The notes beneath the pieces are model-generated. The model saw only the letters and a list, made by a program, of their open reading frames with translations. It made no database searches and was not told where the DNA came from. Both the position numbers and the translations under genes were made by a program. From NCBI RefSeq assembly GCF_016026235.1, contig NZ_CP065613.1: 64,000 bases of DNA; one strand, given 5' to 3'. Below, in pieces: positions 10,694 to 16,970 of this stretch. Positions within the stretch are counted from its first letter, which is position 1. Each line of letters opens with the position of its first letter. Source of the DNA: Escherichia coli (GTDB lineage Bacteria; Pseudomonadota; Gammaproteobacteria; Enterobacterales; Enterobacteriaceae).

Positions 10694-10749
10694 TTATTGT
10701 CAGGCTCTGATCACAGAGCCTGACATCTCCGTAATATCTTCCTGAAGTC

Positions 10750-12195
10750 TCAAATATTTTCGCCATTGTTGGCGATGAGATCCCGATACCAGTAAAACGA
10801 CGCTTTACGTATCCGTTCCAGCGTTCCCTTCCCTTCGTTGTCTTTATCGACATAAATCATTCCGTAGCGCTTTTTCATTTCCCCTGTTCCAGCAGAAACC
10901 AGGTCAATGCAGCCCCACGGGGTGTAGCCAATTAAGTCAACACCATCTTCGACTACGGCTTTTTTCATTTCCCGAATATGGGAAGCAAAGTAATCAATGC
11001 GATAGTGATCGTTTACCGTGCCGTCAGCTTGTCTCTGGTCAACTGCACCAAATCCATTTTCGACAATAAACAGCGGCAACTGGAAATGATCCCAGAACCA
11101 GTTGAGTGAATAACGTAGCCCTGCCGGATCAATTTGCCATCCCCATTCGGATGTATCGATATAAGGGTTGCTGACCAAATCTCGTGGTTCAACATAATCC
11201 AGTTGCGGGTTATCGGGCGAAAATTGTGTCGTAAAAGACATGTAGTAGCTAAAGCCGATAAAGTCGACACAACCACTGGCAAGAATCGCGTTATCTTCTG
11301 GTGTGATATCGAGGTTGAATCCTTTCCTGGCAAAGTAATTCAGCATATGTTGCGGATAATATCCACGAGTATGAACATCAGTAAACCAGTAACGACGATG
11401 CATTGCTTTCGTGGCCATCATCATATCGTTGGGTGCACACGTCAGAGGATAGATGGGACACATGGCGATCATACAGCCAATGTTAAATTCAGGATTGATC
11501 GATTTTCCAGTCTGTACCGCCAGGGCACTGGCAACTAACTCGTAATGTACCGCCTGGTACATTATTTGTTCGCGCTCATTGATATCTTCCTCTGGCGAAT
11601 ACAAGATACCGGAATTAGTAAATGGACACAGGCTTTCGCTGAAATTCACCTGATTATTGATTTCGTTAAACGTCATCCAGTACTTTACTTTTTCTTTATA
11701 GCGCGTGAAGACCGTTGATGCGAAGCGGATAAAAAAGTCGATCAGTTTACGGTTTCGCCAGCCACCATATTTTGTCACCAGATGATAAGGCATCTCAAAA
11801 TGTGAAAGCGTCACCACAGGTTCCATTCCCTGCTTAAGGCATTCATCGAACAGATCATCATAAAATTGTAAACCCTCTTCATTCGGCTCCTGTTCGTCAC
11901 CTTGCGGAAAGATTCGTGTCCAGGCAATGGAAGTTCGAAAGCATTTGAATCCCATCTCGGCAAATAACTGAATATCTGTTTTATAGCGATGATAAAAATC
12001 AATTGCTTCATGATTGGGATAATTAAGCCCGTCGATAACGCCTTCTGTCACTTCACGCGGCACCCCGTGAGCGCCAGCAGTCATCACATCAGCGATACTG
12101 ATGCCTTTTCCTCCTTCATTCCAGCCACCTTCCAACTGATGCGCGGCTACCGCGCCGCCCCATAAAAAACCTTTTTTAAATCCTGACATACACAA
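10750..12195 (-). CDS. Glycoside hydrolase family 1 6-phospho-beta-glucosidase (BglA/AscB-like); probable start at the second Met (12189)
   Basis: 481-aa ORF with GH1 signatures ([14 protein letters not shown] near the N-terminus, ...TFNEIN..., ...IVENG...). Confidence 0.85.
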
Positions 12196-12213
12196 CTCCT
12201 TAACTAAAATAGA

Positions 12214-13887
12214 TTACCACCAGACTTCCGCCTGGATGCCGGCCATAAACTCGTCTTTGCTGTTCTCATTAAACTTAAAATTCGATAATTCGTTATCCAG
12301 AATATTGATATACGTTCCATAGAAGCGAATTTCTGGTCGTGAACCTAAAATGCTTTCACCCACTTTCAATGCATGCCAGAGTGTCGTTTTATAAGCCGAT
12401 TCATTTAGTGTTACACCCTGCTGAGTTTTGTTCTGTTGCTTAAACCAGCCTAATTCAAGCCCCGTCTGATTCCATGTATTCCAGATCCAGGCCGGTCTTA
12501 TTACAGTGCGAATACTGTCAAAATCACTATGAGCACCACTTTCATAACTATAAACATCTTCGCCGTGAGAATAGACAAGCGCGTTAGCCATAATAATATT
12601 GTCAGTAAGATACATCTCGCCCTGAGAGATTAAACGCCAGGCGATCCCATTGGTATGATCACCATAGTAATAGCGACCATGCGCCATCGTATTACTGGCA
12701 TCTGAGAAACTGGCAAAACTGCTGGCATAGGAATTATTGGCAACCTGTAACGTAAATTCATTAAACGTATCGCGTTGCAGGTTTTGCCGTAAAACAGAAG
12801 TCAGCATCCAGCTATCTTTCATTTCAAAATAACTGTTGTCATTTTCGTTATCTTGTTGTTGATCCGTTTTATTAGGTGCGGAATATTTAGCCATTAATGA
12901 TAATGTCGCATCATCCCATAACGGGATATTGCGATAACGAACATCCACAGAATTGGTATTCATCTGGCTGGTACGCGAAAAATCACGAGAGTAAACATCG
13001 ACATCATCACGGCTTAAGGACATATCAAACAGCCCTACACCAAGTGCCCAGTTTTCAATCCCCACACCCGCGGCGACATCCGTGGTTAAGGTTTTCCAGT
13101 CCAGCATCTGGATCTCATATTGCGGGAGTTTATGTTTGCCGACCCAGAAGTCTGCCTCTGGTGCGAAGGGTAAAAAACCTCGCGTTGTCAGGTAAATATC
13201 GCTGAACTGCATGATATTTTCATTGGCACTGTCACCAAACCTGGCATCGTTATACTGCTCACCCACGTTGCCATCATAGGTAACGACCGCATTTGCCGTT
13301 TTACCGTCCTGATTATAAACACGCTGATTTAAGGTCAGGTCAAACCAACCGCTCATCTCATTACCAAAACGTCCCAGAGAACCCGCTGCATAAGTTTGTG
13401 GTGAGCCGTGATTACCAGTACCCCAGCCTGAGCGGAAGTACCCCTGATAGCTGAACCCAATATCATCCTTTATATATTTACTGATATCTTTCAGGGTCAC
13501 GCTTTCGATAGTGGTTTTGTCGCCTTTACTTTCAATAACGGCAACTTGCTGCGATCCATTTATAGTATGCGCTGCGGTAAACGAGTTCTGTTCACCGTTT
13601 TCATTTTTGATGTTATCAGCGACGGGAGATGTCGCTGATATTTCAGCAAGCGAGGCTGATTTATATTTGTTTTCCGTGATGCTTTTTTGTAAGGTCGAAA
13701 GTCGGGATTTATATACTCCCAGTTCATTCTGTGTTGCTTTCAGCTCTTGTTTATTTTGCGACAATTCATTTTCAAGCAATTCAAGGCGCTGCTCTATGGT
13801 TAATTTTGTTGCCATCGCGTTCAATGGAAACAATGCTGTAATAATAGAAAAAGACAAAAGGCTGACGTTAAGCGTCTTTATATTCAT
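12214..13887 (-). CDS. LamB/ScrY-family carbohydrate-selective outer-membrane porin with N-terminal coiled-coil extension
   Basis: 557-aa ORF: signal peptide, heptad-like coiled coil (...[25 protein letters not shown]...), aromatic-rich barrel, C-terminal ...AEVWW as in maltoporin-family porins. Confidence 0.75.
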
Positions 13888-13942
13888 GACTTATCCTTAA
13901 GAGTATAATAATTTCCTCCAGCTATCGCACTGGAGGAAAAAA

Positions 13943-14257
13943 TCAGGCATGGAGTTCTTTTCTTAATGAAATAATTTCCCTGGCTAAATCCAGGCATAAT
14001 ATTGCATTCATCAAATGATCCTGTGCATGAACCAGAATTAAATTAACTTTTATTTTGCCACAGCCTTCATCCTGACTAATTAATGCGGTCTGAATCTTAT
14101 GTGCCTGAAGACAGGCAGATTCAGAACTGGCCATTAGCTGAGTTGCGCCCTGCCAGTCTTTTTGCCCAGCACAACGTATGGCTTCCATCGCGTCAGAACG
14201 TGCCTGCCCCGCGTTGACCAGTAACTCCATAACAAGTTCTTCATCTGCAAACATCAC
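13943..14257 (-). CDS. PTS lactose/cellobiose-family EIIA component
   Basis: 104-aa ORF, ChbA/LacF-like size and helical character. Confidence 0.8.
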   Translation of the reverse strand: MMFADEELVMELLVNAGQARSDAMEAIRCAGQKDWQGATQLMASSESACLQAHKIQTALISQDEGCGKIKVNLILVHAQDHLMNAILCLDLAREIISLRKELHA

Positions 14258-15604: not shown

Positions 15605-15717
15605 TTTTTATACCTGTTGTTTTGGATATTTATACATCCCAATAAAGCATGTATGCCATATCCATTTTATGATGTGTGAAAAGTTAGTTCAGGTAATAGT
15701 TTAATAATATTAGATTC

Positions 15718-16029
15718 TTACTCTTGCAGTAGTTTCATCGCAAATTCAAGAACTGCCTGTCCGTTCATGGTGCCGTAGTCTTTCATCTCGATAACGGCTA
15801 CAGGCATTTTCCCCTGTGCAACGGCTTCAATCTCTGGTTTCTGAAAGCGAACTTGCGGGCCAAGTAAAACAACGTCAACTTCGTTATTTTTAATTTTCCC
15901 TTTAGCCTCTGCAATCGCCAATGCGGAAATATTAACTTCAAGTGAAATAGCGTTAGCATGATCAATCATACGTTTAACCAGCATACTGGTTGACATGCCC
16001 GCAGCGCAAACTAACAATATTTTTTTCAT
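15718..16029 (-). CDS. PTS lactose/cellobiose-family EIIB component
   Basis: 103-aa ORF MKKILLVCAAGMSTSMLV... with the conserved N-terminal Cys phosphorylation motif. Confidence 0.85.
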   Translation of the reverse strand: MKKILLVCAAGMSTSMLVKRMIDHANAISLEVNISALAIAEAKGKIKNNEVDVVLLGPQVRFQKPEIEAVAQGKMPVAVIEMKDYGTMNGQAVLEFAMKLLQE

Positions 16030-16227
16030 ATTTTCCCTTACTGGTATATAACAGATTACATTGTTTAAATATCATATCCCGCAGTAGCTATACGTCCTGG
16101 TACATTGATCACAGTAATACAGTGATAAAGTTGTTCAACATCAGGGTGATTATTAAACGACTCGGCCATACGATAAACCAATCAGGACTCAACTCCTTGT
16201 TTTCAATGGCTCTTAAAAGGTGCAAAA

Positions 16228-16926
16228 GTGATTTTTCAAAAGATTGCCCGCTTACTTAAATCCGAAATCAATGGCAATTCATGGCATGTTGGTGATTTGT
16301 TGCCGTCAGAAGCGGAACTCGCTGTTCGTTATAATGTTTCGCGTAATACCCTGCGTAAGGCATTATCCTTGCTGGAAGGCGAAGGAATTATTCACAGAAA
16401 GCATGGTTCAGGAACATACATTCAAAAAAAGAATTTTGTTGCACACATTGATCACATGAACAGTTTCAGTGAAATTGCGCATAAAAGCGGCAAAGAGGCA
16501 GGGAGTCAGATTATGAAATTTGAAGTGCAGGATGCTTCACCCACTATTGCGACTGAGCTGAATTTAGTGACTGGTGAGCAGGTTTATTACATAAAGAGAC
16601 TGCGATTCATTGAGGATAATGCAGCACAATTAGAAGAAACGTGGATGTCAGTAGCACGTTTTCCTGATTTAACCGTGTCACATATGCAAAAATCCAAATT
16701 TTCATATATTGAGAATGAATGCGGGATCAAAATCATTGGCACCTTTGAAACTTTCTCCCCTACTTTTCCTACCCCAGAAATCGCCAGTATTTTACGGATC
16801 AGCCCACGGGATCCCATACTTAAAATTCAGACCCAGGCTGTGGACAGTAACTCTATTCCGCTGGATTATTCGTTACTTTACAGCAATATTTTCGAGTTCC
16901 AGGTAAAGTACTTTTTCCCGCGATAA
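16228..16926 (+). CDS. GntR/HutC-family transcriptional regulator (GTG start), divergent from the PTS operon
   Basis: 232-aa ORF with N-terminal GntR HTH (...EAELAVRYNVSRNTLRKALSLLEGEGII...) and a UTRA-like C-terminal domain. Confidence 0.8.
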   Translation: MIFQKIARLLKSEINGNSWHVGDLLPSEAELAVRYNVSRNTLRKALSLLEGEGIIHRKHGSGTYIQKKNFVAHIDHMNSFSEIAHKSGKEAGSQIMKFEVQDASPTIATELNLVTGEQVYYIKRLRFIEDNAAQLEETWMSVARFPDLTVSHMQKSKFSYIENECGIKIIGTFETFSPTFPTPEIASILRISPRDPILKIQTQAVDSNSIPLDYSLLYSNIFEFQVKYFFPR

Positions 16927-16970
16927 AAGCAGACGCACAGAGTGCTGACATCACATTCTGTGCGTATGGT

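Follow-up and report, generated by a model that had tools for sequence, protein, structure and literature searches.

A six-gene beta-glucoside PTS locus between marB and eamA of Escherichia coli, very probably bgc, is a long-standing presence/absence polymorphism

Gene content and boundaries of the locus

In the window (the whole stretch of Escherichia coli DNA that was analysed, 64,000 nucleotides) six intact genes fill positions 10696-16979, where K-12 has a hairpin spacer of 30 nt between marB and eamA. The initial annotation had described a 6.3-kb block at this place that is not part of the K-12 layout, and the 30-nt gap found in K-12 NCM3722, an empty site, bears this out. The genes comprise a divergent regulator of the GntR/HutC family and a five-gene operon encoding, in this order: the PTS components IIB, IIC and IIA, a LamB/ScrY-type porin and a GH1 6-phospho-beta-glucosidase (Table 1). 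The gene names and bounds were also checked against the RefSeq annotation of the collinear strain KSC64; the bgc names are used in anticipation of the identification given below.

Table 1. Features of the marB-eamA region, with window coordinates and the evidence for each
Feature	Position	Strand	Evidence
marB, left flanking core gene	10475..10693	+	NF007508 MarB 142 bits, cut-off 87; RefSeq annotation of collinear strain KSC64
hairpin, 12-bp stem, between convergent marB and bgcA	10698..10725	.	-22.1 kcal/mol, z = -5.4
bgcA, GH1 6-phospho-beta-glucosidase, 479 aa	10750..12189	-	NF007154 1037 bits, cut-off 624
bgcH, LamB/ScrY-family sugar porin, 557 aa	12214..13887	-	Pfam LamB 9.3e-82 (residues 147-557); Sugarporin_N 3.9e-7 (residues 30-56)
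hairpin, 11-bp stem, between bgcI and bgcH, then AUUAUUAU	13912..13939	-	terminator-like match; -17.8 kcal/mol, z = -4.1
bgcI, PTS EIIA, lactose/cellobiose family, 103 aa	13943..14254	-	Pfam PTS_IIA (PF02255) 5.9e-32
bgcF, PTS EIIC permease, lactose/cellobiose family, 440 aa	14282..15604	-	TIGR00410 331.5 bits, cut-off 236
bgcE, PTS EIIB, lactose/cellobiose family, 103 aa	15718..16029	-	Pfam PTS_IIB (PF02302) 6.4e-19; TIGR00853 86.9 bits
divergent bgcE/bgcR control region	16030..16227	.	intergenic alignment across genera
-10-like TATGAT	16076-16071	-	in bgcE/bgcR control region
CRP-like site TGTGATCAATGTACCA	16113-16098	-	in bgcE/bgcR control region
conserved TTGAAC box	16138-16133	-	in bgcE/bgcR control region
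bgcR, GntR/HutC-family regulator, 232 aa, GTG start	16228..16926	+	Pfam GntR 3.1e-19, UTRA 7.4e-30
hairpin between convergent bgcR and eamA	16930..16968	.	-21.0 kcal/mol, z = -4.9
eamA (ydeD), right flanking core gene	16971..17870	-	NF008523 629 bits, cut-off 472; RefSeq annotation

The homology with the K-12 empty site stops 2 nt past the stop codon of marB (~10696) and restarts at AACCTTTACCGC, inside the last three codons of eamA (~16979); EamA ends in ..VRG in the window and in ..VGS in K-12. The GC calculation agrees with the earlier impression of an AT-richer block: the GC content is 42.5% within the block as compared to 48.8% and 50.3% in the flanks, and GC3 ranges from 0.38 to 0.46 across the block genes as compared to 0.56 in eamA. 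The flanking hairpins that had been pointed out are real as judged from their folding statistics (Table 1). None of the shuffles of the left hairpin folded equally well; this hairpin is probably a bidirectional terminator. No integrase or transposase ORF and no tRNA gene was found in 10694-16970, nor a target-site duplication or flanking direct repeats at either block junction.

The encoded proteins

Domain searches, in which the initial annotation had seen a possible refutation of its assignments, placed the proteins in the very families it had named: PTS-Lac, GH1 and LamB, with GntR and UTRA domains in the divergent regulator. A family IIC permease is accompanied by separate IIB and IIA proteins, as is characteristic of the PTS lactose/cellobiose family (TC 4.A.3). 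The best equivalog-level matches of IIA and IIC are ChbA and ChbC, both under the cut-offs (NCBIfam ChbA/LacF-type IIA, 99-106 bits for BgcI). BgcA has a full-length match over the curated GH1 cut-off, the catalytic Glu motifs (NE..., ENG) and the phosphate-binding S...K.Y; the alignment to 3PN8 shows that TFNEINN, IVENGFG and S..EMKKRYG are kept. Among the solved structures its best matches are the phospho-beta-glucosidases 3PN8/4F79 (805 bits), with E. coli BglA (2XHY) at 681 bits.

In the porin BgcH a signal peptide precedes a periplasmic coiled coil (residues ~30-78), from which a disordered linker leads to the beta-barrel (145-556). A single-sequence phmmer search against the PDB recovered no LamB/ScrY match even at E = 10, only weak matches to coiled coils, and the family placement therefore needed Pfam, a family profile and a fold comparison. 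The profile, which took in distant LamB-like members, matched maltoporin (1e-112) and ScrY (2e-39). The AF2 model (mean pLDDT 84, barrel >90, helix 30-78 ~88-92) resembled maltoporin 1MAL (TMt 0.79) and ScrY 1A0T (TMt 0.80) in Foldseek, within a range of 0.76-0.80 (TM-score relative to target). With LamB and with ScrY of the pUR400 scr regulon BgcH shares the 18-stranded sugar-porin barrel, and with ScrY also the N-terminal periplasmic coiled coil, but the sequence identity is only 17-24% and the extension is longer, the helix being followed by a disordered linker of ~65 residues. The LamB/ScrY assignment of the initial annotation thus stands, whereas the coiled coil that it called unusual is a recognised domain, Pfam PF11471 Sugarporin_N, 'Maltoporin periplasmic N-terminal extension'.

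The control region

The regulator gene bgcR lies divergently, 198 bp upstream of bgcE. In the intergenic alignment of E. coli, Salmonella salamae, Citrobacter and Kluyvera the TGTGA of the CRP-like site is invariant, and E. coli, Salmonella and Citrobacter share the 21-nt spacing between this site and the -10; this spacing would put the putative CRP site at ~-41.5 (class II spacing). The site departs from the consensus at two positions, and shuffled sequence yields matches of this quality at least as often as the window does. Generic scans of the window for sigma-70 promoters and terminators likewise gave counts no higher than those of shuffles. Because the promoter, terminator and CRP scans all gave chance-level counts, it is the cross-genus conservation that carries the predicted promoter. 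Within the operon, the hairpin between bgcI and bgcH may act as a partial terminator or as a transcript-stability element, as predicted from its fold.

Identity of the locus and related systems

We equate the block, with high confidence, with the E. coli bgc locus, i.e. bgcR and the divergent operon bgcE-bgcF-bgcI-bgcH-bgcA; it is an already described system, first reported in 2009. The equation draws on a secondary description, on what the abstract of the original work reportedly states, and on elimination. Neelakanta, Sankar and Schnetz (Appl Environ Microbiol 2009, 75:2284) reportedly described the operon bgcEFIHA together with bgcR in E. coli i484/CFT073, their abstract giving the name BgcH and counting the porin as a member of the five-gene operon. 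The same work is cited, with no further detail, in a paper on E. coli W and in a 2026 'Trojan horse' review. A GntR regulator together with a Lac-family PTS, a porin and a GH1 enzyme is, to our knowledge, an arrangement unique to this locus in E. coli. The secondary description (PMC3585215, citing Neelakanta et al. 2009) gives five genes in the operon, with a phospho-beta-glucosidase beside IIB, IIC and IIA; it reports cellobiose, arbutin and salicin as growth substrates, and BgcR as a positive regulator similar to GmuR of the Bacillus subtilis glucomannan operon. Elsewhere, bgc figures among four beta-glucoside operons of E. coli and is called cryptic (PMC4488073), and c1955-c1960 of CFT073 are presented as a six-gene 'PTS system, cellobiose specific' cluster (PMC2831201).

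In CFT073 we found the same six genes between marB and eamA, corresponding to c1955-c1960. The bgc locus as published and that of the window agree in content, gene order (IIB-IIC-IIA-porin-GH1), type of the divergent regulator (GntR) and CFT073 site, and no difference was detected, the DNA identity of the block to CFT073 being 97.3%. The occurrence in uropathogenic/septicemic strains and not in K-12 holds as well: CFT073 is occupied and K-12 NCM3722 is empty. All six ORFs are full length in the window and in CFT073, and the dN/dS between the two (0-0.12) shows that all six genes are under purifying selection. The window strain is not of the B2/UPEC type (the neighbouring prophage and the exact IIC sequence point to O121/STEC-like strains), and bgc is therefore spread wider than the 2009 title suggests.

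Three known systems invite comparison. The bgl operon (bglGFBH, K-12) is, like bgc, a cryptic aryl-beta-glucoside system in which a PTS permease is combined with a GH1 phospho-beta-glucosidase and a LamB-family porin, but it has a single EII of the Glc/Bgl family (BglF), the antiterminator BglG and silencing by H-NS, where bgc has split Lac-family IIB, IIC and IIA proteins and a GntR/HutC activator. The chb (cel) operon chbBCARFG has a split lactose/cellobiose-family PTS like bgc, together with the AraC-type regulator ChbR and the GH4 enzyme ChbF, and is not known to include a porin gene; it can be mutated to cellobiose use (PMC4488073). The B. subtilis glucomannan utilisation operon gmuBACDREFG shares with bgc the Lac-family PTS, the GH1 enzyme and the GntR-type regulator, but GmuR is a repressor and its Gram-positive host has no outer-membrane porin, whereas BgcR is reported as an activator.

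Proposed function and substrate

In the mechanism that we propose, beta-glucosides would pass the outer membrane via BgcH and would be imported and phosphorylated at O-6 by the lactose/cellobiose-family PTS, with BgcF as the presumed IIC permease and BgcI (IIA) and BgcE (IIB) relaying the phosphate from HPr. BgcA would then split the 6-phospho-beta-glucoside into glucose-6-phosphate and glucose or the aglycone. The operon would be transcribed from a weak, CRP-dependent promoter activated by BgcR. The published behaviour of bgc is cryptic or weak, with cellobiose, arbutin and salicin used mainly at low temperature, about 28 C. For the range of sugars, the dependence on CRP and the activating role of BgcR we rely on the literature, which reports CRP dependence for bgl too (PMC9499468). 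The uptake of a beta-glucoside suggested by the initial annotation agrees with the experiments on bgc as summarised in PMC3585215.

It is possible, although in our opinion doubtful, that the same machinery serves another natural substrate: some beta-linked sugar of larger size or other structure, for instance cellodextrins, gentiobiose, disaccharides from glucomannan or plant/host beta-glucosides. Cellobiose, arbutin and salicin would then be used only weakly, as side substrates, and this would account for the 'cryptic' look of the operon in the laboratory. A dedicated, operon-borne porin with a periplasmic extension of ~120 residues suggests cargo too bulky for general porins. The bgl operon, however, likewise contains the gene of a LamB-type porin, BglH, which serves small aryl-glucosides, and the presence of a porin does therefore not imply oligosaccharides. 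The purifying selection on all six genes despite the cryptic phenotype, the reported resemblance of BgcR to GmuR and the greater nearness of BgcA to 3PN8/4F79 than to E. coli BglA also favour another substrate; against it stand the published growth on cellobiose, arbutin and salicin and the fact that this analysis identified no specificity determinant.

Distribution and age

The junction comparison proposed in the initial annotation found the locus in 2494 of the 5426 complete E. coli genomes (46%), and the block is thus not rare, K-12 being among the empty genomes. The site occurs in two clean states, occupied or empty. A third type of occupant was looked for among the low-coverage matches, but these proved to be either the usual empty site between flanks that have diverged (L009, L011) or a deletion (L010).

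The designation 'island' made earlier is doubtful in the sense of a recent insertion. Recent acquisition of a mobile genomic island in the lineage of this strain, at an ancestrally adjacent marB-eamA pair, would fit the low GC and GC3 and the two clean states of the site; the same cassette, moreover, is found between cysE and trmL in Salmonella salamae and likewise at a chromosomal site unrelated to marB-eamA in Citrobacter, and must therefore have moved horizontally at some time. We nevertheless consider it very unlikely. The borders are without mobility genes, tRNA gene or target-site duplication, and the identity of the block to CFT073 matches that of the flanks (97.7-97.8%), as does the dS (0.06-0.17 for the block genes, 0.08-0.10 for the flanks): the block diverged in step with its flanks. 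In E. albertii the cassette occupies the same marB-eamA junction with a dS (0.94-1.8) that is not below that of the flanks (0.80-0.92), and it therefore settled here before E. coli and E. albertii split. The empty allele is likewise of some age, as the lineages show 6 differences in the 30 nt of its spacer. Recent insertion is thus largely refuted by the divergence and the E. albertii evidence, and the presence/absence polymorphism at marB-eamA is a long-standing one.

That the locus is a functionless remnant decaying towards pseudogenes is the least probable reading, even though the operon is described as cryptic (PMC4488073), about half of the E. coli strains are without it and decayed versions exist (in an E. 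albertii contig, L012, a deletion made a porin-GH1 fusion; in another contig, L013, the GH1 gene is split and the PTS genes are lost), since the six ORFs are full length with low dN/dS and the BgcR protein is identical in the window, CFT073 and KSC64 (WP_000577184.1) despite 14 synonymous differences between the window and CFT073.

For the long-standing polymorphism, a more far-reaching scenario can be offered tentatively, and we would not bet on it: the polymorphism would be ancient, selectively maintained and older than the E. coli/E. albertii split, the K-12 layout would represent a derived or long-segregating deletion allele and not the ancestral arrangement, and the long-necked porin would be needed for the physiological substrate, a beta-linked oligosaccharide bulkier than the three laboratory sugars.

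Implications

RefSeq gives the six genes generic names, and their tie to the characterised bgc system is useful for annotation. As an accessory trait for sugar utilisation the locus is common, and K-12 differs in it from many wild, commensal and pathogenic E. coli. Its old residence and the purifying selection suggest a genuine role in ecology, perhaps one played at low temperature away from the host.

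Identity and distribution of the locus

The order of the genes between marB and eamA was derived from the ORF map together with the RefSeq gene calls of KSC64, a collinear strain with 99.7% identity over the query, and the six-gene block described in the initial annotation was borne out in every respect. The locus is the bgc beta-glucoside operon published by Neelakanta, Sankar and Schnetz (2009), an already known and common accessory trait of E. coli: it has the same gene content and gene order, and a GntR regulator likewise transcribed divergently. The match was made via a secondary description, which states that BgcR positively regulates a five-gene operon encoding, among others, IIB, IIC, IIA and the phospho-beta-glucosidase BgcA (PMC3585215). 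The earlier reading of a beta-glucoside uptake system was right. The regulators and enzymes of the chb, asc and bgl operons are unlike those of bgc, which makes the locus in the window the sole bgc candidate. E. coli is described as having four cryptic operons for beta-glucosides, namely bgc, chb, asc and bgl (PMC4488073).

The island is indeed absent from the K-12 layout: in K-12 NCM3722 the spacer between marB and eamA is a mere 30-nt hairpin. The uropathogenic strain CFT073 carries the same six genes at the marB-eamA junction, and these correspond to the c1955-c1960 'PTS system, cellobiose specific' cluster, a six-gene cluster that was found in UTI89, HS, SMS-3-5 and several B1 strains and is missing from K-12 and O157 (PMC2831201). 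The island (counted as present at a coverage of at least 80%) was recovered in 2494 of the 5426 complete E. coli genomes, and nearly all others had the empty site.

Boundaries and composition

A base-by-base comparison placed the end of the homology with the empty site 2 nt past the marB stop codon; it restarts at AACCTTTACCGC, within the last three codons of eamA, so that on this side the boundary of the presence/absence polymorphism falls within the eamA coding sequence. Since homology resumes at that point, the C-terminus of EamA differs, reading ..VRG in the window versus ..VGS in K-12. The same last two residues (window 16971-16979) vary between genomes, with ..VRG where the island is present and ..VGS where it is not. 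These exact boundaries, extending into the eamA stop region, are a small addition of this analysis.

As had been noted by eye, the variable block (~10696-16979) is AT-richer, with a GC content of 42.5% versus 48.8% and 50.3% for the flanks; GC3 is 0.38-0.46 for the island genes and 0.56 for eamA. The flanking hairpins were likewise recovered as strong folds at both ends. A third strong hairpin, inside the operon between bgcI and bgcH, is followed by an A/U-rich run and could allow the PTS genes to be expressed independently of the porin and glucosidase genes. Generic terminator scans were uninformative.

Features of the marB-eamA region (window coordinates)
Feature	Position	Strand	Basis	Fold
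marB	10475-10693	+	ORF map, KSC64 annotation	
Hairpin between convergent genes, left end	10698-10725			-22.1 kcal/mol, z = -5.4
GH1 gene (bgcA)	10750-12189	-	ORF map, KSC64 annotation	
Porin gene (bgcH)	12214-13887	-	ORF map, KSC64 annotation	
Intra-operon hairpin, bgcI-bgcH	13912-13939	-		-17.8 kcal/mol, z = -4.1
PTS IIA (bgcI)	13943-14254	-	ORF map, KSC64 annotation	
PTS IIC (bgcF)	14282-15604	-	ORF map, KSC64 annotation	
PTS IIB (bgcE)	15718-16029	-	ORF map, KSC64 annotation	
-10-like hexamer TATGAT	16076-16071	-	window sequence	
CRP-like site TGTGAtCAATGTAcCA, conserved	16113-16098	-	intergenic alignment	
TTGAAC box, conserved	16138-16133	-	intergenic alignment	
Divergent GntR-family gene (bgcR)	16228-16926	+	ORF map, KSC64 annotation	
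Hairpin between convergent genes, right end	16930-16968			-21.0 kcal/mol, z = -4.9
eamA	16971-17870	-	ORF map, KSC64 annotation	

Protein families

Pfam or NCBIfam matches were obtained for every protein and confirmed the PTS lactose/cellobiose, GH1, LamB and GntR/HutC assignments. The glucosidase scored 1037 bits against NF007154 (6-phospho-beta-glucosidase; cut-off 624). Both catalytic motifs, NE and ENG, are conserved in it, as is the S...K.Y motif that binds phosphate. Its nearest relatives of solved structure are the phospho-beta-glucosidases 3PN8/4F79, at 805 bits, followed by E. coli BglA (2XHY) at 681 bits. IIC scored above the cut-off of TIGR00410, the lactose/cellobiose family (331.5 bits vs 236), and IIA and IIB matched Pfam PTS_IIA (5.9e-32) and PTS_IIB (6.4e-19). 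The GntR (3.1e-19) and UTRA (7.4e-30) domains assign the regulator to the HutC subfamily.

The porin BgcH is reportedly the product of the fifth bgc gene in the 2009 study of Neelakanta, Sankar and Schnetz. Its residues 147-557 match Pfam LamB (9.3e-82) and residues 30-56 Sugarporin_N, the 'Maltoporin periplasmic N-terminal extension' (3.9e-7). A single-sequence phmmer search against the PDB returned coiled-coil proteins only, and a search with a profile of 36 family members, distant LamB-like ones included, retrieved maltoporin (~1e-112) and ScrY (2e-39). The AlphaFold2 model (mean pLDDT 84) consists of a helix (30-78), a disordered stretch (~78 to ~140) and a confident barrel (145-556), for which Foldseek alignments with maltoporin and ScrY gave target-normalised TM-scores of 0.76-0.80. 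Given the Sugarporin_N match, the modelled helix and the aligned barrel, the coiled coil, initially called unusual, is a known ScrY-type feature and no anomaly.

The putative bgcR-bgcE control region

The intergenic region was aligned across E. coli, Salmonella, Citrobacter and Kluyvera and showed little conservation over most of its length. The conserved elements were the bgcR ribosome-binding site with its GTG start, the TTGAAC box and the CRP-like site TGTGAtCAATGTAcCA. The latter lies exactly 21 nt upstream of the -10-like hexamer in E. coli, Salmonella and Citrobacter, a spacing that would place it at around -41.5, in a class II arrangement. Such a site fits the CRP dependence that bgc expression reportedly shows according to Neelakanta, Sankar and Schnetz, in whose Bgc+ mutants a single promoter base is said to be changed. 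Salmonella and Citrobacter have the half-site TAACA, and E. coli has the weaker TACCA, as would be expected of a promoter that is weak or cryptic. The site has two mismatches, and such matches number 24 in the window versus 29.6 expected from shuffled sequence. Generic promoter scans were uninformative.

Variant loci and neighbouring regions

Several related loci deviate from the layout in the window. On an E. albertii contig (L012, 8001-10037) a deletion, equivalent to window ~11202-12305, has turned the porin and GH1 genes into a single fused ORF of 678 aa and leaves the IIB, IIC, IIA and regulator genes intact. A decayed locus occurs on an Escherichia-like contig (L013, 1-5272; flanks ~84-87% identical to the window), where the porin gene lies next to mgtS, the GH1 gene is broken into two parts, and deletion has removed ydeE, eamA, bgcR and bgcEFI. 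The variant cassette of Kluyvera georgiana (L007/L008, 6265-11531) encodes a GntR regulator, IIB and IIC, followed by a porin with 76% identity to BgcH and then a Cof-type HAD-IIB sugar phosphatase; because the phosphatase takes the place of GH1 and the IIA gene is absent, it suggests another downstream route for the phosphorylated sugar. E. coli PS2Canimalfeces12 (L010, 3393-5593) has an insertion between marC and marR that consists of a RelE/ParE toxin-antitoxin pair, and in this strain a deletion has taken out marB, eamA and the 5' portion of ydeE.

Elsewhere in the window, ~23 kb of lambdoid prophage remnants (29028-52199; tail protein J, tape measure, ClpP-capsid fusion, IS600) lie between ydfJ and rspB, the Qin prophage site of K-12; the segment is absent in KSC64 and CFT073 and has its best matches in O121 STEC strains (97.6% identity). 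The yneK gene and the ydeI-ydeJ region (6333-7346 and 20926-21945) are intact here and deleted or present as pseudogene fragments in CFT073.

Age, selection and origin

Between the window and CFT073 the DNA identity is 97.3% for the island and 97.7-97.8% for the flanks, with dS values of 0.06-0.17 and 0.08-0.10, respectively. The E. albertii contig, assigned from exact IIC and EamA sequences, likewise has the cassette between marB and eamA, with dS values of 0.94-1.8 for the bgc genes versus 0.80-0.92 for the flanks. The ORF map and junction comparison yielded no integrase, transposase, tRNA gene or target-site duplication at the island or its borders. A recent insertion was therefore rejected: the divergence equals that of the flanks, the site is shared with E. 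albertii and mobility genes are lacking.

The empty-site spacer itself differs between lineages at 6 of 30 positions. Salmonella enterica subsp. salamae has the same six-gene cassette between cysE and trmL, and Citrobacter has it at yet another site (70-76% DNA identity, 80-82% porin identity); in other genera the cassette has thus changed chromosomal site without recognisable mobility genes. Taken together, the dS in step with the flanks, the E. albertii site, the spacer divergence, the cassettes at other sites and the lack of mobility genes point to an old horizontal origin and a long residence at marB-eamA in Escherichia, with occupied and empty alleles both ancient. Such an origin is in keeping with the low GC content and with the GH1 enzyme, whose match to 3PN8/4F79 is closer than that to E. 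coli BglA.

With dN/dS values of 0-0.12 between the window and CFT073, and an identical BgcR protein in both, purifying selection acts on all six genes. What this analysis adds to the known bgc operon is this selection, the ancient residence in step with the flanks to which the data point, and the relocation in other genera.
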